A DNA stretch of 54,092 bases from an uncultured Anaerolineaceae bacterium (GTDB lineage Bacteria; Chloroflexota; Anaerolineae; Anaerolineales; E44-bin32). The position numbers and the translations under genes are program-made. The DNA lies in NCBI GenBank assembly GCA_964353875.1, contig CAYGXU010000009.1, forward strand, positions 1 through 54,092, given 5' to 3'. This document shows, in pieces, positions 1-51,891 of this stretch; position 1 is the stretch's first letter, and every line of letters begins with the position of its first letter. Below the pieces are notes generated by a model, which saw nothing but the letters and a program-made list of their open reading frames with translations, made no database searches and had not been told where the DNA came from.

Positions 1-37
1 GATGCAACTCACGATCAGTTTCTGGAGAAGACTCCAT
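1..37 (-). CDS. 5' end (partial, runs off the window) of a small hypothetical protein, paralog of the 965..1300 gene
   Basis: The reverse strand reads GGAG-N5-ATG GAG TCT TCT CCA GAA ACT GAT CGT (MESSPETDRELH...). This aligns with MEPLETDRDIYL at the start of ORF 965..1315. Nucleotide similarity continues through the 5' UTR and promoter. Confidence 0.45.
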   Translation of the reverse strand, partial: MESSPETDRELH

Positions 38-53
38 TTTCGCTCCATTCAAA

Positions 54-94
54 ATTCAATTGTTGAATTATAACCCCGAGCCGACACATGTCAA
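54..94 (-). promoter_or_regulatory. Sigma70-type promoter (TTGACA-N16-TATAAT) with an overlapping palindromic operator ATTCAA-CAA-TTGAAT
   Basis: On the minus strand the -35 TTGACA lies at 94..89 and the -10 TATAAT at 72..67, with a 16-nt spacer. The perfect palindrome at 68..54 overlaps the last 2 nt of the -10 and the expected start site. A 22/25 identical block sits upstream of gmd at 8726..8750. Confidence 0.55.
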
Positions 95-128
95 CCCGCC
101 ACGTAGAGTAAAATTTTCATCGCCCTGA

Positions 129-950
129 TCATTTCGGTCCAGCGGCTCGAACCAGGATCTTGGCTGCCGCGTCACGATCCTCCTCACCGCTTTGAAACGG
201 GCTGTAAATGCGTGACCGGACTTGATGGAACGCCTCCAAGGCTGACTCGATGATTTCAAACTCACATCGTTCAAAGATTTCCCTGAAGATCGCTTCATAG
301 TCCCAGATTCTAAGCCGGTTTAAATTGCTAGCTGGATTTAGATAACGACGCCAGGTCTTCTCCGAGTAACAAAGCATCGCAAATGGATATCTGAAGAGGT
401 GATCGCGCAGATCGATGAAATGCACATGCGCGCCCGAGAATTTCGTGAGCGCAGCGAGGGATTTTGTAACCTGTCGTGGATTTTCAAGATGTTCGTAGAC
501 GGAGGAAGACAATACCAGATCCAATGCTTCGGCGCATCTATTTTGATATGCCTCTGCCGTATCATGCACAAGTGTAATGCGTGCCGGATTAGGACTAACT
601 TCACCATTCTTTATGAAGATGTATGGTTCAGCTTCTTTCGCGAGGACGAGATTGTCCTGCCGATTCGTCAAAGCGTAGGGATCTAAGAGCACTACATGTT
701 GTGCACCGCGTTTGAGTAGCTCGACTGCAGAACCGAAGTAGCCACCGTATCCAAGAATCAACACCCTTGCTCCCTGTATTCCTAGCCCCCACGCCGCCAA
801 CGCATCCGTATAACGATTGACTGCCGCTTGCGCGTCGCGCGTCTCGAGACCTGACTGCACTCCTATGTTGTGCCCCATCATCCAATGCATGATGGGTGTA
901 GGAGTGAAACGGCGTGCCAAACGTAATGCAAGATACTCTAACGACGGCAC
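129..950 (-). CDS. Class I SAM-dependent methyltransferase
   Basis: 273-aa ORF. It has a glycine-rich motif I (VLILGYGGYFGSAVELL) followed by an acidic post-I residue (VVLLDPY) and a later LVLSSSVYEHL motif, typical of the Methyltransf_11/23 fold. It starts 14 nt after the upstream small gene. Confidence 0.7.
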   Translation of the reverse strand: MPSLEYLALRLARRFTPTPIMHWMMGHNIGVQSGLETRDAQAAVNRYTDALAAWGLGIQGARVLILGYGGYFGSAVELLKRGAQHVVLLDPYALTNRQDNLVLAKEAEPYIFIKNGEVSPNPARITLVHDTAEAYQNRCAEALDLVLSSSVYEHLENPRQVTKSLAALTKFSGAHVHFIDLRDHLFRYPFAMLCYSEKTWRRYLNPASNLNRLRIWDYEAIFREIFERCEFEIIESALEAFHQVRSRIYSPFQSGEEDRDAAAKILVRAAGPK

Positions 951-964
951 CTCACGATCTCCTT

Positions 965-1300
965 TTATGCAAATTCACCTGAAGCGTCTGATTTTGTATT
1001 CTTGAGAAATGGAGAGGTCTTTCCGGGCCTCTCTCGAAAAAGCCAAATCGGATTCTCCATAGAAGCAATGATCAGGCGCGCCCGCAAAGCAATCCCCGAA
1101 GGTTTAATGACGTAACGCAACTTAGGAAGCTCAGCGCTTTTAGCTCTGATAAAAAGGTTCTCGATGAAGCGCCTGAGATACCAATTTTCCGTGCCCACAA
1201 CCACGCCGGTCCTTGCTGTCATACTAACCTGGGGTGTGTCTTGACCGTTATCAATTGAATCAAGCAGATAGATATCACGATCGGTTTCTAGAGGCTCCAT
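965..1300 (-). CDS. Small hypothetical protein (111 aa from the ATG; the ORF track extends it to a TTG at 1315)
   Basis: Open frame with no recognisable family. Its N-terminus, 5' UTR and upstream region are paralogous to window positions 1..128. Confidence 0.5.
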   Translation of the reverse strand: MEPLETDRDIYLLDSIDNGQDTPQVSMTARTGVVVGTENWYLRRFIENLFIRAKSAELPKLRYVIKPSGIALRARLIIASMENPIWLFRERPGKTSPFLKNTKSDASGEFA

Positions 1301-1431
1301 CTTCGTACCATTCAAATCTCAATTGGTGAATTTTTGCCCTACCAAGACATGGGACAGGGCCGGTTATTCCCCAAGATCATCGCCATCCTTTAGAAAGCTT
1401 TGAAATGAGAAATGCAGTTGGTCATTATTGG

Positions 1432-3405
1432 TCACCGTTTTACAAAATCCCTCTTCGGAGCAAGCAACCACACAGAGACCTTATCAGCTCTCAGCACCGG
1501 CTGATAATACTCCAGGATGGGTACACTGACATGTTTGACCCAGGCATCGTTCTCCTCACCAAAAGGCTCTTCAGATCCCTGAAATACAATATAGAGGGGA
1601 TCACTGACGATCAATTGAAAACGGTGACGGGAAAGATCTCTATACAATTGAGCAAAATACGTTTGATTATTTCCCATCGCCTGGTTCATCATATCCTTGA
1701 GCTCATAATCCATTACCAGAGGAACCTCGGTGATCTCGCCAAAAGTAAGAAGCTGACGCTGGTCAATAAATAGCACTTCCCCTTTCTCTGCTGCTTCCAT
1801 GGTTAGATAACGGATGGATGCAAGCGCCTCGCGGACATCTTTATTGTCAGGCAAATCCAGGTGTTCTCCAACTCGGACGAGATTCCAAATTGGAACAAAG
1901 ATCACAGCCAGAAGCAAAACCCAGGCAAAGCTTGGCATCGATCGTAACACACTCTCCTTGGTGATTAAATAGCCCGTAAAAAGGACGAGAGTCACCAAGA
2001 ACATATCAAGATTGTGGAGATTACTCCCCCCACCGATTTTTACACTGGCGACAAGACCAGCTCCAAGGAATCCGAGAAAGGCGACCAGGGTTACAAGCCC
2101 CTGTAACCAATCTAACTTCACTCTACGGCTGAGAATCACCCATGCAAGCCATAATAGGAGAGGTCCAACACTATAGATCAACCCTGGGATCACGCCAGTC
2201 GGATTGGTAGCACTTGGCCAAAGTCGATACCAAAGGAGGGGCTGACTCAGGGAGGTGGAATAAATAGGTCCAGTGCTTGGGAAAGCGAGATCCATATAGA
2301 TTTGCGAAATAATCGCGCCGATAATCCCTGAAAAGCCCAATATGAAAGGACGTCGCAGCCTTCGCCAGAATGTCTGCGCCGGCTCTTCATCCAAAATTGC
2401 CCACACTATAGCCCAAATAGCAGGGGACAGCATCCATGTCCAACGACTGATTCCGGCATAAAAAGAAGCGACAGCTATGATCAAAGCTGGTTGCCAAAGC
2501 CAATTACGCCGATATCCCAGCACAAAGATGATTGCACTTATAATAAGGGGAGCGTAAATCGGTCCTTGAGAGAGAAATAGAAATGCCCAGAGAGCGAAAG
2601 GCCATGGTCCCAAATGGAGATGATCAGAACGTCGCGCCCCGATAACCACCCAACCCAAGACCATATGAGGCAAGATCCAAAGCAAAGCGTCCCATAAACG
2701 CATGTGCTCGATCGAGAGCCGACTAAAAAACAAGAAAGGCAAGCCCCACAATCCATGACGCCCCGGCGTTAGGTAGGAAGGATAGGAGAACTCTCCAACA
2801 ATATCGTATCGATCATGACTAAAGTAGAGGGAGTAATCCCAAAGCCGATTGCCTTCCGACCAACCAAGTGCGAAAGGATAATCCGTCACCTGAAATAAAC
2901 GCTGCACCACCAATACAATGCAACTGGAGAGGAGCAACGCTGTCATCCCTCTCACGACCCAATGTCCCAATTTCCTGGGAAAGAAAAGACCTGCAATTAG
3001 TGAAAAAATAACCACCAGCAGGATACGAAAATTCGGGAAATCGAATCGCCAGCCCCATGGTCCAAAAAGGAGGAAAGAAGGAAATGCCAAGCTTATCAGG
3101 GCGATAGGCCATCGGAGGGATCGTATCCGATCGAGCTGTGTCTCTATCTGAGGAATCCATTTTGATTCAACTTCCCCTGGTTTAAAAACCCCGTAGACAA
3201 CAACAAACATCACTCCCCATGCCAGGAGGCCATAACCGATCAGCCCCACGCCCCATTTGACTGAGAAATGCCCGAGGAACTCCCCATTGCCTGTACCCAT
3301 GCCGCGCAAGAAGAGATCGCGTGAGCCTGAGACAACCAAGATCCCTAATAGAAGCCATCCGATCCGTAGCCAAAATGTCGCGCTTCGAAAGATCGATTTC
3401 ATCAT
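1432..3405 (-). CDS. Large polytopic membrane protein with a C-terminal soluble domain, candidate GT-C-type glycosyltransferase
   Basis: 657 aa with more than 12 hydrophobic segments, then a ~150-aa hydrophilic C-terminal domain. It has a 4-nt start/stop overlap with the upstream flippase-like gene and sits in a glycan locus beside a polyprenyl-phosphate GT2. Confidence 0.55.
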   Translation of the reverse strand: MMKSIFRSATFWLRIGWLLLGILVVSGSRDLFLRGMGTGNGEFLGHFSVKWGVGLIGYGLLAWGVMFVVVYGVFKPGEVESKWIPQIETQLDRIRSLRWPIALISLAFPSFLLFGPWGWRFDFPNFRILLVVIFSLIAGLFFPRKLGHWVVRGMTALLLSSCIVLVVQRLFQVTDYPFALGWSEGNRLWDYSLYFSHDRYDIVGEFSYPSYLTPGRHGLWGLPFLFFSRLSIEHMRLWDALLWILPHMVLGWVVIGARRSDHLHLGPWPFALWAFLFLSQGPIYAPLIISAIIFVLGYRRNWLWQPALIIAVASFYAGISRWTWMLSPAIWAIVWAILDEEPAQTFWRRLRRPFILGFSGIIGAIISQIYMDLAFPSTGPIYSTSLSQPLLWYRLWPSATNPTGVIPGLIYSVGPLLLWLAWVILSRRVKLDWLQGLVTLVAFLGFLGAGLVASVKIGGGSNLHNLDMFLVTLVLFTGYLITKESVLRSMPSFAWVLLLAVIFVPIWNLVRVGEHLDLPDNKDVREALASIRYLTMEAAEKGEVLFIDQRQLLTFGEITEVPLVMDYELKDMMNQAMGNNQTYFAQLYRDLSRHRFQLIVSDPLYIVFQGSEEPFGEENDAWVKHVSVPILEYYQPVLRADKVSVWLLAPKRDFVKR

Positions 3406-4334
3406 TCCTCAGGCCTCTTAGTTTTGATCCGTACCTCCTCCGGCACAACTTTCCCTACCCAAAGCGCACCTGGAAGGCTGACGAATAAGTAAAAGAAACG
3501 TGTAATCAATGCCAGGGCGGTCGCCTGTTCCGTTGAAGCTCCAAAATGGGTATAAAAGGCTACTATCGCTAATTCACGGATTCCGTATCCATTGATGGAT
3601 AAGGGAATCAAAGTCAAAAAATAGACAAGACTGGAAGCCCCGGCGACATCTTTCAAACTTACAGGGATATTAAGACCAATGGCGATGAGAAAAACTGCAC
3701 AAAACCATACCAGAACACCACAACAAGAGGCCAACAGTGAAAGTAATAGCCAGATTGGCCTCTTTAGCCAATGCTGAAGAGCCCCCATAAAATGATCAAA
3801 AGCCTCTCGCATACTGCCTGATATTTTTCTTTTATCCATCGCAATGGGGCCCGCAAATAGCAGACCGGTTCTAACTACAGATTGGAGCAGAGGGATACCG
3901 AAGGGCAGAAAGAATAGCATCCCAATGAAACCAACCAAACGATCGACCACAACCGAGGCTGCTGCTTCCATGCGTTTCTCTGATTCCTGCACGATCCCTG
4001 CAATTCGCACGACATCTCCGCCTACCATACTCGGTAAAAAATTAGAAGCGAAAAGGCCAGAGAAAACAAACATAAGGGTACGAAAGAACGGAAGGAAAAT
4101 ACCCTGAGCACGCAACAGAAGAAACCAACGGATGGTGTTCCAGGTATGTCTCAATAAAAGTAAAAGAATGCTGAGGATAAGCAGATAAAGAGGCAATGAT
4201 TTGATCGCCTCAAGTATCATCCGCCAATCTTGTTGTGAGAGAAGCCAAAGGAGCAAACCCAACGACAGGATCGTGCCAATCAGTCTTAATCTCCAGGATA
4301 TCCCCTTCTTATGGACTTTATCCACATAGGACAT
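3402..4334 (-). CDS. Flippase-like / lysylphosphatidylglycerol-synthase TM-region family membrane protein (UPF0104)
   Basis: 310 aa and multi-pass. It has the characteristic SNFLPSMVGGDVVRI motif and an RW..LL N-terminal segment. Confidence 0.7.
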   Translation of the reverse strand: MSYVDKVHKKGISWRLRLIGTILSLGLLLWLLSQQDWRMILEAIKSLPLYLLILSILLLLLRHTWNTIRWFLLLRAQGIFLPFFRTLMFVFSGLFASNFLPSMVGGDVVRIAGIVQESEKRMEAAASVVVDRLVGFIGMLFFLPFGIPLLQSVVRTGLLFAGPIAMDKRKISGSMREAFDHFMGALQHWLKRPIWLLLSLLASCCGVLVWFCAVFLIAIGLNIPVSLKDVAGASSLVYFLTLIPLSINGYGIRELAIVAFYTHFGASTEQATALALITRFFYLFVSLPGALWVGKVVPEEVRIKTKRPEE

Positions 4335-4341
4335 TGTTTTG

Positions 4342-5397
4342 TCAATCCATTACCGCAAGATATAAAGGTTCAAGTAATCTTAATAACTCATCCCCCAAAT
4401 CAGCTGGCGCTTTATTTCGGTAAGGCACTCCCATCCAATACACTGGGGTCTCTGCGAGGCGCTCAATGAGTAATTCTTGCTCCCGGGCTTTCCAGGCTGT
4501 GATCCTATCGGTGGCTTGAGGTATCCCGAGGTTCTTCTCCAGAAGCCTACAGAAATGACGCGCCTCAAAGAAATTCATATTGAGTACTTCCCCGACGGGG
4601 ATATCCGTTGGCGAAATCCGTTCGATGGATGGATGACTCCTTTCCGTACGTTTTAACAGGATGATCGCCGCTATATACGCTTCAGCAGCAATTTCATGTT
4701 TTGGCCACAGACGTTGAGCGCCCAATCGTATTGGCCACTTCACCCCCTCCCTTGAGATCATACGCAGCCGTCCGTAGAACTCCAGTTTCATTCGTTCTCC
4801 CAAGCTAAGCCTGGAACGAAGCTGTGGAATCCAGCGCAAGAGGTCAAGATATAGATGCGAACGTGTCAGATAGGGCAATGATTTCCGTCCCGGCAGAAGA
4901 AAAACATAATCATCTGCATGCAATCGGTATTTCGCTCCTCCACGTTCCAAAATAAGCGAACTAACCGTAGTCTTTCCAGTGCCGCCCATTCCTGTAAAGA
5001 TCAGACTTCGATCACCATAAACGACTGCCGCTCCATGCAGCATGAGGGCAGATTGAGTCGAGCTTAGAAAACGCAAGCTCGGATGGACAAGCATATGATG
5101 AACCATGGGAACGGCAATCCCGTTCCCTACAGCATCTATTTCGATCCGGCTTTCCCCCAAGTTTACTCTATAAGCCCATTGTGCCAGGAGTTTGTGGGAG
5201 TGAAAGCTGTATCCAGAGCTTCTTTGCCCGAGGGCATTTCCTCTTCTCCAATGTAGACGAAAAACGGGGATACCTGGCGAGAATTTCCCTGCCGAAAATC
5301 GGAATTCCTCCTCGATGAAATCAAGAGCATAGATATCCCGGCTCTCAAGTTCAAAACCTACCAGGTCATGAAAGTTATAACTCCGCGTCTCGCTCAT
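4342..5397 (-). CDS. HPr-kinase-like (HprK C-terminal domain-like) P-loop protein
   Basis: The segment LHGAAVVYGDRSLIFTGMGGTGKTTVSSLILERG...LHADDYVFL resembles the HprK/P catalytic core (lHG..v...g.g.li.G.sG.GKS...L...G..l..DD). It has a 4-nt overlap with the upstream GT4 gene. Confidence 0.6.
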   Translation of the reverse strand: MSETRSYNFHDLVGFELESRDIYALDFIEEEFRFSAGKFSPGIPVFRLHWRRGNALGQRSSGYSFHSHKLLAQWAYRVNLGESRIEIDAVGNGIAVPMVHHMLVHPSLRFLSSTQSALMLHGAAVVYGDRSLIFTGMGGTGKTTVSSLILERGGAKYRLHADDYVFLLPGRKSLPYLTRSHLYLDLLRWIPQLRSRLSLGERMKLEFYGRLRMISREGVKWPIRLGAQRLWPKHEIAAEAYIAAIILLKRTERSHPSIERISPTDIPVGEVLNMNFFEARHFCRLLEKNLGIPQATDRITAWKAREQELLIERLAETPVYWMGVPYRNKAPADLGDELLRLLEPLYLAVMD

Positions 5398-6530
5398 CCG
5401 CCAATCGCTTTCTTGAAAACTTTCTCATAGTCATCGGCAACATGGCGGATATCGAAAAGAGCTGCCTTGGAACGACTGGCGATTTTCATCTTACGCAACC
5501 GCTCTGAATTCTGCAGGCAATAGCGCAAGCCATCTTCGAAGCATTGGCGATCATTGATCGCACAAAGGCGTCCGTTAACACCATCTTCGACCAGATCGAT
5601 AAGACCACCCGCCCTATTGGCTACGATCACCAACCCCTGAGCGAGAGCATGTACACCCACTACAGGCAGTCCTTCCGAAAGAGAGGGCATGACGAGAATG
5701 TCACTCTCTCCTAATTGCCGCCAGACTTCATCGGTACTGACCCAGCCACCCAGATGAATGCGGTCTTCCAGGTGAGTCTTTTTGATCGCTGTTTCGATCG
5801 CTTCACGTTGGGGGCCATCACCCAATAATATACATGTCCACTTTAGATCCTTTAACCCTGAGAGAGACTCCACCAGGAAGACAAGATTCTTCTGAGGCTG
5901 AAATCGACCGGCAAAAATCAGCCGAGGCGTGTCCCCGACAGTCAGATTCCTATCTATTTCGGAATCTTCGGGCAGCTTCACACCGTTGGGGATGACGCTC
6001 ATCGCTACCGGGTAATGTTTTTGCGCCAATTCCATCGTATAACCGCTTACGGTAACGACCGCCCGAGCACCTTTCCAAATCGGGGGAGTGAAGGGATAAA
6101 TGAAACGGAACCAACGATCGGTCTTCTCTGGAACCCCCCCAGGCACATCCCCCAAATGAGCAGTAAGCACATAGGGGATACCACTCAGACGAGACAGCAC
6201 ATAACCGAGGACGCCAGTAGGAACAGCAAAATGTACATGGATCAGATCGGGTTTCCAACGTCGCAAATGCGATAAGGCAGGAAAAAAAGCTCCAAGAAGA
6301 TATCCCAACATCACACGCAATGAGGCTTGGGTCAGAACTCGCCGACCAGATGGGACACGCAAAACGCGATAACCATCAATCATTTCATCGCGAGGTAGCC
6401 CTTGTGCGTGGGAGGTGATCAAGCGAAGCTCATGACCACAATAGGCAAGCGCCTGACAAAGATCTGCACAGGCGCGTCCACCTCCCCCGCCAACAGGCGG
6501 ATATTCATAATTCAGCACCAGTATCTTCAC
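5394..6530 (-). CDS. Glycosyltransferase family 4 (GT-B fold)
   Basis: VKILVLNYEYPPVGGGGG N-terminus and a C-terminal E..G....EA-type motif (MPSLSEGLPVVGVHALAQGLVIVANRAGG). I chose the GTG at 6530. The ORF-track start at 6662 would overlap the upstream GT2 gene by 113 nt. Confidence 0.85.
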   Translation of the reverse strand: MKILVLNYEYPPVGGGGGRACADLCQALAYCGHELRLITSHAQGLPRDEMIDGYRVLRVPSGRRVLTQASLRVMLGYLLGAFFPALSHLRRWKPDLIHVHFAVPTGVLGYVLSRLSGIPYVLTAHLGDVPGGVPEKTDRWFRFIYPFTPPIWKGARAVVTVSGYTMELAQKHYPVAMSVIPNGVKLPEDSEIDRNLTVGDTPRLIFAGRFQPQKNLVFLVESLSGLKDLKWTCILLGDGPQREAIETAIKKTHLEDRIHLGGWVSTDEVWRQLGESDILVMPSLSEGLPVVGVHALAQGLVIVANRAGGLIDLVEDGVNGRLCAINDRQCFEDGLRYCLQNSERLRKMKIASRSKAALFDIRHVADDYEKVFKKAIGG

Positions 6531-6549
6531 TCGAGACTCAGCGGCCGAC

Positions 6550-7572
6550 TCAAGCCTGATCCTCCCCTTCACTCTCGTCCGTCCATCCATTATGAATCGA
6601 ACGAACTGAATAGGTGGGTTTCGCTTGAGATTCATGATATGTACGGACCAGTAACTCGGCAATTAAGCCCATCAGAATGGATTGGAATCCGAGGATAAAC
6701 AACATCGTGGTCATCAGAAGCAAGGGGGAGCGAATCATGTGTTCATCCAAGATAATTCGACGCCCGACCAATATTCCTAGCATGACGACACTCAATGCAA
6801 TTAAAAAAATGCCAGTCCCACCAAAGAGGTATATGGGTTTATTCGCATAGCTGATCAGGAATTTTACAGTGAACAAATCCAGGATGACCTTCAACGTTCG
6901 TTCCAAGCCGTATTTCGCTTTTCCGTGCCTGCGAGGGTGATGGCGTACTGGAATCTCGATTATCTTCGCGCCAACCCAACCGGCATATGCTGGGATAAAG
7001 CGATGCATCTCTCCATAAAGCCGAAAGCCCTGCAGGACTTCGCGACGATAAGCCTTTAAAGTACAGCCATAATCATGTAGACCGACGCCGGTGACTTTCG
7101 AGATGAGCCAATTCGCAATTTGAGAGGGGATTCTCCTGGTAAAGAGCTTATCCTGGCGATGAACACGCCAGCCCGAAACCAGATCGTAACCTTCCTTGAT
7201 TTTTTCCACCAGGAGGGGGATATCGGCCGGATCATTCTGCAGATCAGCGTCAATTGTAACAATCACATCCCCATGGGCGTGGTCGATCCCGGCCGCAATG
7301 GCCGCTGTTTGCCCAAAGTTACGACGTAATTCAACCACATGGGTATGTTTTGCATCTCTCTTGGCAATCTCTCCCAATACTTCCCGGCTCCCATCGATGG
7401 AGCCATCGTCAACAAAAACCAATTCATACGAATGGGCACTGAGCGCTGAAGTTAGTTCCTGATGAAGCGGTTTGAGGTTCTCCTCTTCATTGAAGACCGG
7501 GATGACAATAGAGAGATCCACTTTCTTCACTTGCCCAACCTCTAGATCAAATTGATAAGACGAATGGGGCAA
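6550..7572 (-). CDS. GT2 polyprenyl-phosphate glycosyltransferase (GtrB/ArnC/DPM1-like)
   Basis: LSIVIPVFNEEENL, VFVDDGSIDGS, TIDADLQNDP (DXD) and two C-terminal TM helices. This is the classic GtrB/ArnC architecture. Confidence 0.85.
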   Translation of the reverse strand: MPHSSYQFDLEVGQVKKVDLSIVIPVFNEEENLKPLHQELTSALSAHSYELVFVDDGSIDGSREVLGEIAKRDAKHTHVVELRRNFGQTAAIAAGIDHAHGDVIVTIDADLQNDPADIPLLVEKIKEGYDLVSGWRVHRQDKLFTRRIPSQIANWLISKVTGVGLHDYGCTLKAYRREVLQGFRLYGEMHRFIPAYAGWVGAKIIEIPVRHHPRRHGKAKYGLERTLKVILDLFTVKFLISYANKPIYLFGGTGIFLIALSVVMLGILVGRRIILDEHMIRSPLLLMTTMLFILGFQSILMGLIAELLVRTYHESQAKPTYSVRSIHNGWTDESEGEDQA

Positions 7573-7608
7573 TATGCTGCCAGGGCTTAATCTTCGTCAT
7601 AAAGGCTC

Positions 7609-8694
7609 TTATTCAAGCTCATTTGCCTGGCTATTCAATACAGCCGTTACTCCGGTATCCCAACGGTGCCAATCACCGAAACATTCTTTAAGGATGCGCA
7701 GGCCTTCACCAATGGGTTTCTGACCAATCGCTTCCATGTCTGCATCCACCATGATACGGGCTAATTGCTTATATGTAATTTTCGGTTCCCATTCAAGCCA
7801 TTTACGTGCTTTGGATGCATCAGCCAGCAGAAAATCTACTTCCGTAGGTCGGAAATATCGAGCGTCAATCTCGACATACTTTTCCCAATCCAATCCAGCG
7901 TATTCGAAGGTCTCGATGACGAATTCTCGCATACTTGGGGCTACACCCGTGCCGACAACATAGTCATCCGGATGATCCTGCTGCATCATTTGCCACATGG
8001 CTTCAACATATTCTGGAGCATACCCGTAATCCCTGCGCGCGTCCAGGTTTCCCAGATAAACCTTCTTTTGTGTTCCAGCTAAGATGCGCGCCACCGCTCG
8101 TGTGACTTTGCGAGAGAGGAAAGTGGGCCCACGGCGAGGGCTCTCATGGTTAAAGAGGATTCCATTGGAAGCAAACATATTGTATGCCTGACGATAATTC
8201 ACCGTCATCCAAAAACCATATAACTTCGCGATCGCATAAGGGCTACGTGGTTGAAAAGGGGTGGCTTCATTTTGAGGAGGTGGCGCGCTTCCAAAAATTT
8301 CACTGGAAGAGGCCTGATAGAAACGAGCAGCAATCCCGCTGCGTCGGATCGCCTCTAAGATGCGTGTCGTCCCGAGACCGGTCACCGATCCAGTATACTC
8401 AGGCATCTCAAAGCTTACCTTCACATGAGACTGTGCTCCCAGGTGATAAATCTCATCCGGTCGAACATTGTAGATTAGATTGGTTAATTGTTCAGCGTTC
8501 GACAAATCGCCATAATGTAAATATAAACGGGCTGAAGGGTCATGGGGGTCCTGGTAAATGTGATCGATCCTTTCGGTGTTGAAGGTGCTCGCTTTGCGGA
8601 TCATTCCATGGACTTCATAACCTTTGCTAAAAAGGAATTCAGCCAGATAGGACCCATCCTGGCCAGTGATTCCGGTGATTAAAGCCTTCAACAT
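7609..8694 (-). CDS. gmd: GDP-mannose 4,6-dehydratase
   Basis: [44 protein letters not shown]..., YAIAKLY catalytic motif, 361 aa. There is an AGGAG Shine-Dalgarno sequence 6 nt upstream. Confidence 0.95.
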
Positions 8695-8731
8695 GGGACA
8701 CTCCTGTAATTATCGGGCATTAGTTTTCAAT

Positions 8732-8772
8732 ATTCAGTTGCTGAATTATACCCGGATCATGTCAACGGTCAA
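8732..8772 (-). promoter_or_regulatory. Sigma70-type promoter (TTGACC-N16-TATAAT) with palindromic operator ATTCAG-CAA-CTGAAT upstream of gmd
   Basis: The -10 lies at 8750..8745 and the -35 at 8772..8767, with a second TTGACA at 8765..8760. The perfect palindrome is at 8746..8732. Relative to the copy at 54..68, both arms carry a complementary substitution, so the palindrome is preserved. Confidence 0.55.
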
Positions 8773-10355
8773 GCCTTACGGCGTCTTGCGCTAAACCGAT
8801 CGAAAGTCAAGATACATGTCAAATAGAGGAGGATTATACTTATACTTACCCCAAGGGTCTTCCAAAAACTTAACCGTGGAGTTTGATAATATCTTCCCAT
8901 TTCCCAATGAAGAAAGGTTATGGTTGGGATTACTACTACGACTCCAATCCGCAGTAGCCAGGGATCATGTTCCTCCCGAGCGGTAATCCAGGCCCAACCA
9001 GCCATTGCTGCCTGAAGGCAAAGGAATATCGCCCTCCAGCGAGGATTATCCCACAGGCGACCTGCATCCCGATAGGAAACCAGCAACGCTGCAACCCAAA
9101 GTAATATTCCCAGATACGTTTCCAGGCTGCGCCATCCCTTATAGCGGATCGCTGCCAGGGGAGCGTAGATCAAAAAAGGTAGAAGGAAGAACCAGCCTAA
9201 TGCCCGAAAGGCAACGATTGCACGGATGAGGGGCGCACTCGTGTTATCCATCACCGCTGCAGGAAAGAAAGGTTGTACCAGGCCATAGAGTGTCGCCAAG
9301 GGCAATCGCCCCCAATCCGGTACCATTCCAAAGATGGTTTGAACCCAGCCTGAGGATTGTTCAAGAAGATGAAGTTGATAACCAGCCCCACTTTGTATCC
9401 ACCAACGCACCAAATCAATCAAATTGCCATCAGGTGCCCCCTCGATCATTGCCCAAGCGCGGATTGTCAAGGCGAAGACCACGAAACAGAATAGAAGCAA
9501 AGCGCCCAACGTAATCACGATATGTTTGGCATCGCCCCGCTTCTCCCAAAGCCATGCGAAGATAAGAATGCCCAGGATGATCAGGGCATAAGGGGGCGAG
9601 ATAAGAAGCGCGAGTATGAGGCCACACAACCAATAAAGTAAGCCTTGCTTTAGTCTCGTTGAACGAGAATGGGTGTATCCTTCAAGCCCAAGCGCCAATG
9701 CTGTCATGAGAAAGGGTTCCCGCATTTGAGAAGAACCTAGGAGCACTGCCTCCGGGTAGAAGGCGACTAGCCAGGCTGCAAACATCGCTGCCCGATTCCC
9801 AAACAGCTTATGGGTGAATGACCAGGTAAACAATACACACAGGGAGCCAAGTGTTGACGCCACAAGGATGATGAGGATGGGACGATGAACATCAGAGGAC
9901 ACCGTCCGGTAGAGGAATGCACTCAAAAAAAGCAGTCCTCCATATTGGTCACTAGAATAATCACCTTCCCAAGCACTGATGAGGGACTTATCGGATTCTG
10001 CCAGTCGCCATGCATCGGTGTCACGATGATAGGCATCTTTAAAGATGTAACCAGCCTGATGGGGAGCAGAATCGCTATAGCCATATTGGGGAAGGCCATA
10101 CGTCAAGATCACCCCAAGACCCAATCTCAGTGCAAGCGCCAAGAGGGCAGCAAGGAGCAGCCATCGAGGTCGATCCAACCCAGCCAAGGTACGCCATGAA
10201 AACCAGAAGAGTAGCGCGCAAATAAGGCTGACAACGAGGTATGCCAGAAAATTCGCTAGTGTCCTACCACCCGAATCCAGCAAGGTTATCAGCACACTCA
10301 CAACGAGAGGAAAAACGAACCATAGAGACCCATCTCGTACAGCCTTCAATTTCAT
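8769..10355 (-). CDS. Polytopic membrane protein, candidate glycan polymerase or GT-C-type transferase
   Basis: About 528 aa from ATG 10355 (GAGAGAAGG upstream), with 12 or more hydrophobic segments and large loops, inside the glycan locus. No family motif recognised with certainty. Confidence 0.55.
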   Translation of the reverse strand: MKLKAVRDGSLWFVFPLVVSVLITLLDSGGRTLANFLAYLVVSLICALLFWFSWRTLAGLDRPRWLLLAALLALALRLGLGVILTYGLPQYGYSDSAPHQAGYIFKDAYHRDTDAWRLAESDKSLISAWEGDYSSDQYGGLLFLSAFLYRTVSSDVHRPILIILVASTLGSLCVLFTWSFTHKLFGNRAAMFAAWLVAFYPEAVLLGSSQMREPFLMTALALGLEGYTHSRSTRLKQGLLYWLCGLILALLISPPYALIILGILIFAWLWEKRGDAKHIVITLGALLLFCFVVFALTIRAWAMIEGAPDGNLIDLVRWWIQSGAGYQLHLLEQSSGWVQTIFGMVPDWGRLPLATLYGLVQPFFPAAVMDNTSAPLIRAIVAFRALGWFFLLPFLIYAPLAAIRYKGWRSLETYLGILLWVAALLVSYRDAGRLWDNPRWRAIFLCLQAAMAGWAWITAREEHDPWLLRIGVVVVIPTITFLHWEMGRYYQTPRLSFWKTLGVSISIILLYLTCILTFDRFSARRRKA

Positions 10356-10650
10356 CCTTCTCTCACATCCTTTATTCAATCAACCCTGCCTGATCTGAAG
10401 ACCTGATTGCCTATCCCAGCACACGAAACTATGAAGAAAATTTGGTAGTCTCTATACAACCGGAAGCCTTCAAAAGCGACTGACTTGGAAGGCCAGGATT
10501 ATCTTGCATAGAAGTCGATAGCTTTTTGCTTCCAAAATCATACGACAAGTAGAAGAGCTTCCTTCGGTTATAGAATCTCCGCATTATCCGGCAATTCGTC
10601 GTAAATTCTTCTAGAACATATGCTTCCATGCATCATCTTGCTCAAGGCAA

Positions 10651-11775
10651 TCATAAACCCTCAATGGAACGATTGGCTCGTTCTTTCCATGAATATTTCG
10701 ACGCGTCTTCTCGGGCTTGATTCGCAAGCGATTGCCAATGGCCAGGTTCCACGAAGATCCTCTTCATCATCTGATCCCAGGCTTCGAGATTCTCAGAAGA
10801 TAATAAAATGGCATTGGATGGGTTCAGAATCTCTCGCAGAACTGGCAAATCACTCGAAAGGATCAGCCTCCCTGTTGCCATATACTCGAACACCTTCATC
10901 GGACTGGCGTACGCTGCCGTATCCCCCCCACTGCTGATCGAGATCTTCTGTTCGTAAGGCATCAAGAGCACGTCGCATGCTGCCTGATAGAGTGGGAGAT
11001 CTATGTTCTCAACAAAACCAATCACATGGATGTTCTCCACATTGGCAGAAGCAACTGCCTTCCTCCAATGTTGGACAGCGGCCGCTTCACCGCCTACCCA
11101 GAGAAATTGGACTTCAGGATTCCTTTGCGCCAACTGAAAGAGTAATTCGATCCCCCTTCCAGAATAGAGATGCCCCGTATAGCCCGCAGTAAAACGGTCT
11201 CTGATTCCAATGCGTTTCCTTGCTTCCTTTGCCAAAGGAATTTGCTCGTAGCGCTCAAGATCCACTCCCATGGGTGAAACCAATGCGAAGGGCGCTTCAA
11301 GGTAGGTATTAAAAGCCAATGACAAACTGTCATTTAAAGCCGTTGTGATCGACAGCAGCCTTCTGGCACCGCCTCCTTTTAGAAAGGCGCGGAAGAGGTG
11401 AGGTCCAAATCGTCCATGTGGACGATCGTGCATTTCCAAAATCGTAGGCAAGTTGAGTAATGAGGCAATTGCGGCCGCTTGCAAAGGCCAAATGTAATAA
11501 CAATCCGCCTCCCAACGCCGTCCTGCCAGTACAGCTCTGAAAGCAAAATCATAGCGCTTCAAAAGCTGAAAAGACTTCAACCAACAAATCGGGAAAATCT
11601 CTCTAATGCCATATTGGGATTGAAGCTGATTCCAATCCACCTGTAGCTGATTGCCCGGCAACCAAAGCTTTAACTCATGCCCTAATTGTATGAAGGCCTG
11701 ACAGACCTTCATCACTTGCATCGAATTGGCAGTTCTTGATGGGATCCGGGAAGTTGAGATCATAGCGATGCGCAT
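10651..11775 (-). CDS. Glycosyltransferase family 4 (GT-B fold)
   Basis: MRIAMISTSRIPSRTANSMQVMKVCQAF N-terminus and a C-terminal ..SPMKVFEYMATGRLILSSDLP.. (EX7E-like) motif. Confidence 0.85.
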   Translation of the reverse strand: MRIAMISTSRIPSRTANSMQVMKVCQAFIQLGHELKLWLPGNQLQVDWNQLQSQYGIREIFPICWLKSFQLLKRYDFAFRAVLAGRRWEADCYYIWPLQAAAIASLLNLPTILEMHDRPHGRFGPHLFRAFLKGGGARRLLSITTALNDSLSLAFNTYLEAPFALVSPMGVDLERYEQIPLAKEARKRIGIRDRFTAGYTGHLYSGRGIELLFQLAQRNPEVQFLWVGGEAAAVQHWRKAVASANVENIHVIGFVENIDLPLYQAACDVLLMPYEQKISISSGGDTAAYASPMKVFEYMATGRLILSSDLPVLREILNPSNAILLSSENLEAWDQMMKRIFVEPGHWQSLANQAREDASKYSWKERANRSIEGL

Positions 11776-19669: not shown

Positions 19670-20020
19670 CTCTCGCTTTCCTGTCAAAATCCATGGTGGA
19701 ATTGGCTAATGGAGCGACCACCTTGGATAATTTGCACTCACGCTTTCGTCGACCGTTGGTGATAGGCAAGCATATAGAAATCGCTAGCTATTCAGGCAAA
19801 GACCCGAAAAGTCCGTTTTACGGTCTGAACTTTCCTTTCGAATGCAAATATCCAATAGTTTCAACTAATCGTTTTGTCAGAAAGACCTTTAGGGTCTGCG
19901 TATGCATACAAGGTTGAGCCGCTGTAATAATTCACAATAAGCCGGGGTGGTCCTCATGCCAAAATTCGAACTTGTTCGTCCAATTTCCGGGGCTCATTCG
20001 CTAATTGAGGAATTATTACG

Positions 20021-22698: not shown

Positions 22699-22859
22699 GG
22701 CAAGCCGTACGCGTGAACGACAAGATGTCGTTTGGACTAACCTTCTTCCATCCGGACTATACCGTCGGCTCCGGAATTAAACCGGATCATGCATTTTCAT
22801 GCTCGCGGGCTTTACCGCCGGTCGGGAGTTGGACTGATAATCCTCACCCTGCCCCGAAG
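22692..22859 (-). promoter_or_regulatory. Structured 5' leader element (riboswitch-like aptamer candidate, class not recognised)
   Basis: A perfect 10-bp long-range helix pairs CUUCGGGGCA (22858..22849) with UGCCCCGAAG (22701..22692). It encloses several local hairpins: GCAU-GAAA-AUGC, UCCGG-uuuaauu-CCGGA, AACGACA-ucu-UGUCGUU, and ACCGGCGG/CCGACGGU. Confidence 0.5.
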
Positions 22860-22892
22860 GTCGAATTATTCAATTGTTCACATATTGCACGA

Positions 22893-34694: not shown

Positions 34695-35732
34695 TTAATT
34701 CCCCCCCTGACAGCCCGTGTTTACGAATTCACCTGTGAAATCAGAAAACTTCGCTGCATTATCCCGTACTATGACTTTGATCTTGATTTGCGAATCGGGC
34801 TGCACGCCAGGAATTGTCGTTGCCCCTCGATATGTGCCATTCCAGGTACCATAAGGGGTGTAGCTTTGACTAACGGCATCCAGACCCTTGCCACAGATAT
34901 CCGATTCTGAGGGCAGGATACTACACCAGAGACTGACATATCCACCACCATCCCCCAGTCCGGATGAAGGCCCAATTCCGTAAGAGACTGCCTGATCCTT
35001 TACATTGGCAATCTGGACATCAATATGGCAATTTTCGCCATCTCGGTTGAGGACGACGACAAGCTGAAGCAATTCTGGCTTCTGGCTATCCGCTGGTGTC
35101 GGCGTTGGAGTAATGGTCGGCGTGTTTGTAATTGTTGGCGTAGGCGTTATTGAAGGCGTCGGCGTATTCGACGGTGTGGGTGTGTTCGACGCTGTGGGTG
35201 TATTCGACGGTGTGGGCGTGTCCGATGGTGTGGGGGTAATCGACGGCGGTAATGTCGGAGGTGGGCGGCGGGTGCGAGTGGGTGTTGGCGGGATGGGCGT
35301 TCGGCTGGGTGTGGGCGTCTTTGATGGCGTTGAAGTATTGGTTGCCGTCCTGGTGAGCGAAGGCGACGGGGTCACCGTGGCGGTCAGGGTCGCCGTCGCA
35401 CTGGGCGTGATGGTCGGCGTATCCGTCGGAACCAATACCGTCACGGTTGGAGAGGGCTCTTTCTCCTCAGCTAATTCGTCCCCATCAACTTTGATTGATT
35501 GGTCGCGCAGGAGCTCTTCAATAATCGATAGCCTCAGAGCGCCTAACGAACCCAGCAGGTCCTCCGCGCCGTAATCTGCGCCCAGACGGGATTGCAGGCT
35601 GACCGATAAAGGTAATAAACGCGGCCAATTCAGGACCATGCTTGTGATGGCAGCAATTAATAGAATCGTCAACAAAAAGATCAGCAGAGCTTCTAACGGA
35701 AACTGATCCCTGCGGGAGGTTTCATCTTCCAT
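34695..35732 (-). CDS. Membrane-anchored surface protein with a Thr/Pro-rich linker and a Cys-containing C-terminal domain (paralog A)
   Basis: N-terminal TM (LEALLIFLLTILLIAAI), the juxtamembrane motif ADYGAEDLLGSLGALRLSIIEELL, about 130 aa of TP/SP repeats, and a ~120-aa C-terminal domain shared with 35879..37105. Confidence 0.7.
   Translation of the reverse strand: MEDETSRRDQFPLEALLIFLLTILLIAAITSMVLNWPRLLPLSVSLQSRLGADYGAEDLLGSLGALRLSIIEELLRDQSIKVDGDELAEEKEPSPTVTVLVPTDTPTITPSATATLTATVTPSPSLTRTATNTSTPSKTPTPSRTPIPPTPTRTRRPPPTLPPSITPTPSDTPTPSNTPTASNTPTPSNTPTPSITPTPTITNTPTITPTPTPADSQKPELLQLVVVLNRDGENCHIDVQIANVKDQAVSYGIGPSSGLGDGGGYVSLWCSILPSESDICGKGLDAVSQSYTPYGTWNGTYRGATTIPGVQPDSQIKIKVIVRDNAAKFSDFTGEFVNTGCQGGN
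35155..35244. repeat. Five tandem 18-bp repeats encoding S-(N/D/I)-T-P-T-(P/A) hexapeptides
   Basis: Units start at 35155, 35173, 35191, 35209 and 35227 (GGTGTGGGTGTRTTCGAC-like). They lie inside the linker of 34695..35732. Confidence 0.85.
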
Positions 35733-43570: not shown

Positions 43571-43653
43571 AACCTCGGTTTTTCCTTGAAGTCACTGGCA
43601 TTCCCTATCTTCGGAGATAAGATTTGATTTTTATTCTGACCTTTTTGATCCAT

Positions 43654-43707
43654 TATTAAGCTATTATGCTTAATATGTTCTATATTTAGCGATAATGCTT
43701 AATAATG
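43654..43707. promoter_or_regulatory. Candidate operator array upstream of the SatD-family gene
   Basis: Palindrome TATTAAGC-N6-GCTTAATA (43654..43675) plus a direct repeat of ATGCTTAATA (43666..43675 and 43695..43704), 29 nt apart, in an AT-rich spacer. Confidence 0.4.
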
Positions 43708-51341: not shown

Positions 51342-51891
51342 GGCTCATCTTCGCTCCATTAACTATTCACCCCTTAGATTATCCTTTCTGTCCCCTGAAA
51401 GCAAGTCATCACACGCCTTCGTTTCCAGCTCTACAATCAAATAAAGCACCTCGGATACAATCGGTACAGGATATTTCTTGTGCATCCCTAACAACCACCC
51501 AAGCCCAAGGAAGATTGGCTGATGCTCGCCTTTAGGTTAAAATCACTCTAGTATGGATACCCTCACCTTTGGCTACTGCAGAGGATTCTGCGGCTTGTTC
51601 AGACTCGCAATCTGGATGGCGTTTCCTTATCCTATCGAGGGTTATAGGCTGGGAAGCGCTTCCCATGAAAGCCTTCCTTTCGCAACCATGGACCGGGCTG
51701 TATCAATCTTTTTTTCTGTATTCATCCAACAAGGCATCCTTTCTTGTCAGTTATGGAATAAAATGAAAAGAGTATTTCCGCAAGTGAGAGTATGTTTCCA
51801 TCCCTTCGCGGAACACTTCTGGATTTTCGAGTTCATCCCTCAATTTAAAAAGATCAGTTAAAATTGAACCGTTCAGCGCGAGAACAAAATA

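Follow-up and report, generated by a model that had tools for sequence, protein, structure and literature searches.

The locus raises the question of whether a promoter-operator block found upstream of gmd, which encodes a GDP-mannose 4,6-dehydratase and heads a run of glycan genes, and again upstream of a small gene cut off by the contig edge, marks a single regulator acting on both, and, if so, which protein that regulator might be. The stretch analysed, here called the window, is the whole 54,092-nucleotide piece of DNA from an uncultured Anaerolineaceae bacterium of freshwater sediment. An earlier note, made from these letters alone, had proposed that one unidentified dimeric regulator coordinates the glycan genes and possibly an ABC transporter. 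As detailed below, the promoter-operator shared by gmd and the edge gene held up, the product of the edge gene itself emerged as the candidate regulator, and the transporter dropped out of the proposed regulon.

On the minus strand, the composite TTGAC(A/C)-N16-TATAATTCA-R-NNN-Y-TGAAT-W-TTGA occurs at 49-94 (copy A) and 8727-8772 (copy B; Table 1). With three or fewer mismatches allowed, the 24-nt motif was recovered in the window only at 49-72 and 8727-8750, compared with an expectation of 0.02 sites, and the looser pattern ATTCAR-N3-YTGAAT occurs exactly twice (54-68 and 8732-8746; 0.04 expected). The 25-nt blocks at 48-72 (TTCAAAATTCAATTGTTGAATTATA) and 8726-8750 (TTCAATATTCAGTTGCTGAATTATA) are identical at 22 positions, as had been reported, and promoter and motif scans of the window confirmed the claim that each locus combines a TTGAC(A/C)-N16-TATAAT promoter with a palindrome. 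Among sigma-70-like promoters predicted in positions 1-11000, copy A (TTGACA-N16-TATAAT, 12/12) and copy B (TTGACC-N16-TATAAT, 11/12) ranked on top. The palindrome core of copy B carries one mismatch to AATTCA-N5-TGAATT. An ATG at position 36 lies 13 nt downstream of copy A and opens a reading frame that leaves the window, and the ATG of gmd lies 33 nt downstream of copy B. Both blocks had further been described as continuing into a shared 9-mer, CATGTCAAC (GTTGACATG on the gene strand); it is present at both promoters (85-93 and 8759-8767), but at different distances from the -10 box. At copy A this 9-mer is the -35, and at copy B it yields a second TTGACA just 9 nt from the -10, besides the functional-looking TTGACC.

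Table 1. Positions of the promoter-operator copies, neighbouring genes and related elements in the window; promoter elements are predictions.
Feature	Position	Strand	Description
Regulator N-terminus	1..36	-	First 12 codons (MESSPETDRELH...); gene continues past the window edge
Copy A, 24-nt composite	49..72	-	TATAATTCAACAATTGAATTTTGA; motif scan, three or fewer mismatches
Copy A, -10 box	67-72	-	Fused to perfect palindrome AATTCA-N5-TGAATT at 53-69
Copy A, -35 box (regulator promoter)	89..94	-	TTGACA; 16 nt 5' of the -10; 12/12 match
Regulator paralogue	965..1300	-	Truncated and diverged, 111 aa; winged-helix part only, C-terminal half missing
Copy C, decayed operator	1316..1332	-	Two mismatches to AATTCA-N5-TGAATT; poor promoter CTGTCC...AAAAAT
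Genes after gmd	1432..7572	-	GT2, GT4, P-loop protein, LPG_synthase_TM-like protein, 657-aa membrane protein; tightly packed, co-directional
GT2 gene	6550-7572	-	Homologues in L104 and L130 carry the motif directly
gmd	7609..8694	-	GDP-mannose 4,6-dehydratase; Pfam GDP_Man_Dehyd; first gene after copy B
Copy B, 24-nt composite	8727..8750	-	TATAATTCAGCAACTGAATATTGA; motif scan, three or fewer mismatches
Copy B, -10 box	8745-8750	-	Fused to palindrome with core (t)ATTCA-N5-TGAATT at 8731-8747
Copy B, -35 box (gmd promoter)	8767..8772	-	TTGACC; 16 nt 5' of the -10
FMN riboswitch	22736-22865	-	Rfam search
11-mer	22868..22878	+	ATTCAATTGTT; immediately 5' of the FMN riboswitch

The gmd product has Anaerolineales homologues that are 78-94% identical to it. 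Judged only from gene packing, the genes that follow it probably form one operon with gmd, driven from copy B.

To follow the block through other genomes, gmd relatives were taken from metagenomes by protein similarity, a selection that carries no bias towards the motif. At all four loci whose GMD proteins are 75-80% identical to that of the window (L003, L004, L005 and L008), TTGAC-N16-TATAATTCA-R-NNN-Y-TGAATTTTGA lies upstream of gmd, and the promoter spacers, the three central bases and the 5'UTRs are mutually unrelated. The proposed palindrome is thus conserved at orthologous loci, its arms kept while the flanks diverge. At another gmd locus (L007) the palindrome is retained and the final TTGA lost, and among the relatives fetched the motif is absent upstream of the more distant gmd genes, of 73% identity or less. 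In a near-identical strain (L001), the 85 nt 5' of gmd carry three SNPs, located in the spacer, the palindrome centre and the UTR, with none in the arms; strain variants over copy A show zero differences at positions 1-190.

Across a 596-Gb collection in which each of about 186,000 prokaryote species is represented by a single genome, an exact scan with TATAATTCARNNNYTGAATWTTGA returned at least 119 stretches, compared with a chance expectation of about 2, calculated for uniform base composition. The matches listed come nearly all from Chloroflexota, mostly Anaerolineales, and include the cultured Anaerolinea thermolimosa IMO-1. When the gene lying no more than 500 nt downstream was classified for 120 sites among the matches listed, 58 sites were found to precede a gene for a small winged-helix protein (the regulator, described below) and 53 to precede gmd, together 111 of the 120. 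Of the nine remaining sites, one lies before a cut-off gmd, two before GT2 genes, one before a PMT/ArnT-like membrane glycosyltransferase gene and two before capsule-synthesis-like genes; the last three, in L132 (a Chitinophagales genome), L162 and L194, each lack a recognisable target gene and look like chance occurrences. The motif thus stands directly 5' of genes of the GT2 (GtrB/Dpm1-like), PMT/ArnT-like and capsule-synthesis-like types in L104 (1553-1576), L130 (minus strand), L142 (3809-3832), L128 (411-434) and L189, the GT2 genes of L104 and L130 being homologous to that of the window. This suggests a regulon slightly wider than gmd and the regulator. The matches in the collection were ascertained by the motif itself, so that the evidence for conservation of individual pattern positions comes from the smaller set ascertained by protein, together with three further variant sites. 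The number of copies and their near-exclusive placement before gmd or the regulator gene agree with the earlier view that the block is not a product of neutral drift, and with two copies in 54 kb it does not behave as the dispersed repeat that would have argued against a regulatory role.

The regulator family has some 160 residues and the signature ...LLEQIExDPDVNQ..LGVAVGTVNWHLKRL..KLRYIITPEG..., and comprises 7,168 non-redundant proteins at E <= 1e-5, whose source names are only generic. Orthologues match Pfam HTH_24 (E 3e-14) and MarR (E 1e-7). For the A. thermolimosa orthologue (L099), the top NCBIfam match is TIGR04176 (MarR_EPS) over residues 13-107; its score of 65.5 bits falls short of the 88-bit cut-off, which places it outside that family under the NCBI rule. 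The residues encoded at the window edge, MESSPETDRELH, fit the N-terminal pattern of regulators linked to the motif, for example MSLHSETDRDLVILE in L099 and MGSSPDHDRDLILLE in L146, and copy A would therefore be the regulator's own promoter; MESSPETDRELH was not found as an N-terminus in the best 120 of the 7,168 family members. An AlphaFold2 model (pLDDT 86.5, monomer) predicts a winged-helix domain (residues 1-66), a long helix (68-105) and a small alpha/beta domain (110-153), with the MarR proteins HcaR, FabT and MepR (TM 0.38-0.46) and also Sso10a-2 as the best fold matches in the PDB. Among 59 members, the recognition-helix residues G37, T38, N40, W41, H42, K44 and R45 are invariant, as are G115, G117, A120 and C123 of the C-terminal domain, where C127 is nearly so. 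The invariant signature at residues 115-127 of the L099 protein, G-x-G-D-x-A...C-R-L-T-C, looks like one half of a dinucleotide-binding motif with a CxxxC pair added, which makes it a candidate effector or redox site. The protein that binds the site is most likely the winged-helix, MarR-like regulator encoded right behind copy A.

Genes for the regulator and gmd are frequently adjacent. In seven loci (L006, L007, L017, L083, L088, L118 and L140) the regulator gene directly follows gmd; the motif upstream of gmd was individually confirmed for one of the seven, L007, and there the sole palindrome found sits upstream of gmd. In L131 and in the window, the two genes have separate promoters on the same strand, 3-9 kb apart, and in four further assemblies both sites lie on one contig or within one assembly. 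Many regulator genes start 2-10 nt past the motif with no Shine-Dalgarno sequence (e.g. L093 1126-1160, and L126), and such leaders extend only about 12-20 nt from the predicted +1, leaving an mRNA that would be nearly leaderless.

Alignment of 129 unique sites, numbered with the first T of TATAAT as 0, resolved the block into TATAAT (0-5), a left arm AATTCA (3-8) that has four bases in common with TATAAT, a centre R-Y-N-R-Y (9-13), a right arm TGAAT(T) (14-19) and a final T-T-G-A. The dyad centre falls on position 11, and positions 1, 3 and 4-8 are mirrored by 21, 19 and 18-14. What had been taken for extra TTGAAT-like half-sites following each copy is really the outer part of the right arm, whose left mirror is constrained by the -10 box. 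The arms are invariant across the 129 sites, in part through ascertainment by the motif, and the loci ascertained by protein retain them as well; TTGAC is over-represented at -22 to -18, giving a 16-nt spacer. At the position 9/13 pair we counted G-C in 68 sites, A-T in 25, A-C in 20 and G-T in 16. Symmetric pairs are over-represented (chi-square 18, a statistic that ignores phylogeny), and 28% of sites are asymmetric, which reduces the "compensatory" A-to-G and T-to-C exchange between the two window copies from a rule to a statistical tendency. Asymmetric pairs are depleted about equally (G-T to 0.60 and A-C to 0.65 of expectation), which fits the dyad symmetry of a DNA site and not RNA pairing with G-U tolerated. 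Copies A and B themselves differ at this pair, which is thus not a specificity determinant.

Two variations on this architecture were observed. Six regulator promoters of one clade (L093, L094, L107, L126, L181 and L192) carry a second palindrome, ATTCA-N5-TGAAT, located over the -35, 25-26 bp upstream of the first, and L094 has a third, weaker one at -46. A clade of gmd promoters (L091, L092, L098, L109, L111, L133, L195 and L200) shows no TTGAC at 16-17 nt; what its members conserve instead is (G/T)TGACCG, some 24 nt upstream, together with an ATAGTG that abuts TATAAT on its 5' side. In this clade the actual -10 and start site may differ, or a second factor may act; its TATAAT may accordingly not be the -10, and repression by occlusion is less certain there.

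Transcript evidence was sought in public RNA data. No RNA runs containing the organism of the window were found, nor any for L112, considered for start-site mapping at a gmd promoter. For the regulator promoter of L099, with TATAAT at 5347-5352 and a predicted +1 near 5359, adaptor-joined fragments from anaerobic-digester metatranscriptomes start at 5374 (X21), 5368 (X23), 5373 (X27) and 5374 (X34), a cluster 8-15 nt past the predicted +1. In X21 and X23 the depth is zero 5' of these starts and 18-22x 3' of them. Other fragment starts are scattered within the gene (5432, 5509 and 5593), and in X24, X25 and X33 low-depth contigs cross the promoter, indicating read-through or contaminating DNA. 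The cluster is what would be expected from libraries that lose the extreme 5' end, and it supports, imprecisely, a start in or just before the right arm. At the gmd promoter of L098, where a single short unitig spans the -10, the contig ends at 4351/4352 coincide with a point of divergence between strains and were rejected as assembly breaks.

Taken together, we consider it likely that a dimeric winged-helix repressor, released by a signal, binds over -12 to +12 both at the gmd promoter and at the promoter of its own gene. In the mechanism proposed, a sigma-70-type promoter (TTGACn-N16-TATAAT) has its -10 fused to an inverted repeat of about 23 bp, spanning approximately -12 to +12, with the core AATTCA-RYNRY-TGAATT and an outer right arm TTGA. 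The regulator dimer would cover the -10 and the start site at both promoters and, when bound, would block RNA polymerase, resulting in negative autoregulation and in repression of the gmd-led glycan operon, until a signal sensed via the small C-terminal domain released it. The palindrome over -10/+1, the second palindrome over the -35 and the gmd-regulator operons all point to a self-repressing regulator that would also shut off the gmd operon. Furthermore, the residues of the recognition helix are invariant and are matched by invariant half-sites, which argues for the regulator as the binder.

The block could also be a genuine operator or promoter element used by another protein, either an unlinked global regulator or a positive factor, with the winged-helix protein binding elsewhere. 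The site data leave the identity of the binder to be inferred, and the gmd promoters that lack a canonical -35 may hint at a need for activation. Set against this are the 58 of the 120 listed sites that fall at the promoter of the winged-helix gene itself, the operon that this gene often shares with gmd and the joint invariance of recognition helix and half-sites, and a placement over -10/+1 is not the geometry of an activator; we regard another binder as unlikely. Less probable still would be that the block is nothing regulatory, only two strong promoters plus a duplicated 5' region, a dispersed repeat or chance. The -10 consensus does account for six of the shared bases, and copies A and C do stem from a gene duplication. 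Yet gmd and the regulator gene are unrelated and have the block in common, its conservation reaches 18 nt past the -10 in more than 100 genomes while the flanks diverge, and there are merely two copies in 54 kb, which makes this the least credible of the readings, and one we give almost no weight.

An element acting at the RNA level, as a 5'UTR hairpin or as single-stranded UGAAUUUUGA by the start codon with an effect on translation or stability, was likewise weighed and is, in our estimate, very improbable. For such an element, the change from A-U to G-C would be true structural covariation between arms able to pair, consistent with the excess of symmetric pairs; motif and start codon are separated by 2-30 nt, and the whole palindrome might be transcribed in the clade that lacks the -35. 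However, taking TATAAT as the -10 puts the left arm 5' of +1, and the L099 RNA fragments start at or past the right arm. Non-pairing A-C occupies 20 of the 129 sites, with G-U not favoured over A-C. Hairpins of the whole leaders are weak (-2.4 and -6.1 kcal/mol, z about -0.6 against shuffles), no Rfam match was found at either copy A or copy B, and the second palindromes over the -35 lie in non-transcribed DNA. On the position of the left arm relative to the predicted +1 and the L099 fragment starts, the roughly equal depletion of A-C and G-T, the z value and the Rfam result, a cis-regulatory RNA hairpin was rejected.

Other repeats in the window bear on the extent of the proposed regulon. A degenerate third copy had been placed at 1316-1335; it exists (copy C, Table 1), but as a decayed site ahead of a truncated paralogue, and it was not recovered by the 24-nt motif scan at three or fewer mismatches. 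The paralogue shares 44% identity over 85 aa with the L099 regulator (E 8e-27), matches TIGR04176 weakly (19.8 bits) and has the recognition helix GTENWYLRRF compared with GTVNWHLKRL in the regulator. From this arrangement, copy C appears to be the remains of an ancestral site ahead of a diverged or decaying regulator paralogue. The paralogue could be a pseudogene-like relic or a regulator of changed specificity.

An 11-mer of the block had also been reported to recur just past the predicted promoter of the transporter leader, at 22867-22877, flanked by a TTGAAT-A-ATTCGA palindrome. The recurrence is real, one base further on (22868), but a place in the regulon is not borne out: the 11-mer sits at about +9 to +19 from the leader's own promoter and has no left arm at N5 spacing, and its local TTGAAT-A-ATTCGA repeat has an arrangement opposite to that of the motif. 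With its wrong geometry, its place at an FMN-riboswitch leader and its failure to match the motif at three mismatches, it was rejected as a member, which leaves the inclusion of the ABC transporter unsupported. For a given 11-mer about 0.02 second copies are expected, and there are an estimated 30 or so overlapping 11-mers to pick from, so that one recurrence is unremarkable; the site is best read as chance. A repeat copy at 51346-51382 and an inverted match at 19688 were likewise rejected, sharing only a Shine-Dalgarno/start region (AATGGAGCGAAGATG) attributable to chance plus ribosome-binding-site similarity. Elsewhere in the window we observed an AT-rich inverted repeat at 43651-43707, with 26-nt arms (CATTATTAAGCTATTATGCTTAATAT / ATATTTAGCGATAATGCTTAATAATG) that are 77% complementary across a 5-nt gap, and direct repeats of 18-nt period at 35098-35420 (GTCGGCGTnnnnGTAnTG-like) that presumably encode a repetitive part of a surface protein.

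Autorepressors of the MarR family with palindromic operators over their own -10/-35 include E. coli MarR at marO, S. aureus MepR, S. pneumoniae FabT and Acinetobacter HcaR. As in these systems, a small winged-helix protein is accompanied by a dyad operator that overlaps its own core promoter and that of a neighbouring target operon, with tandem operators at some loci; by analogy, release by a ligand would be expected. Three features of a MarR-type autorepressor, namely a dyad operator, its overlap with the regulator's own predicted core promoter and an adjacent winged-helix MarR-family gene, are found here. In the regulator model, a monomer, the canonical MarR dimerisation bundle of N- and C-terminal helices is not seen, and its TM scores to MarR structures are modest; the operator is fused base-for-base to TATAAT, and the targets, known from sequence alone, are nucleotide-sugar and glycan genes in place of efflux or aromatic catabolism. 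The regulator also shares with TIGR04176 ('MarR family EPS-associated transcriptional regulator') its association with polysaccharide loci and a match spanning nearly the whole 105-position model, whereas the Anaerolineae proteins are about 60 residues longer at the C-terminus; we know of no operator described for that family. Sso10a-type proteins (PDB 4hw0) have the same succession of a winged helix and a long (coiled-coil) helix (target-normalised TM 0.69-0.73), but are archaeal and chromatin-like, lack the C-terminal alpha/beta domain and are only about 20% identical in sequence, and we are not aware of any comparable sequence-specific operator among them. Full-text literature on EPS-associated MarR regulators and on Chloroflexi regulon reconstructions yielded nothing on the motif or the regulator. 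The putative regulon is thus undescribed, and its predicted mechanism, in which a winged-helix protein represses its own gene from a palindrome over the -10, is an ordinary, textbook one.

Sediments, digesters and wastewater plants harbour abundant Anaerolineae. To our knowledge almost no regulators have been characterised in Chloroflexota, and gene regulation in Anaerolineae is essentially uncharted. Here, a putative regulator-operator pair is conserved across an order with cultured representatives, Anaerolinea thermolimosa and A. thermophila, and is tied to the supply of GDP-deoxyhexoses for cell-surface glycans. The motif also provides a clean annotation rule for gmd and regulator promoters. 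More speculatively, and with considerable doubt, the regulator might serve as an Anaerolineales-wide feedback sensor of an envelope glycan, its C-terminal domain reading either a nucleotide sugar, be it GDP-mannose or a GDP-deoxyhexose, or else NADP(H) or the redox state, and thereby tuning gmd and its own level; if so, that domain would represent a new and compact type of effector domain carried by a winged-helix scaffold.
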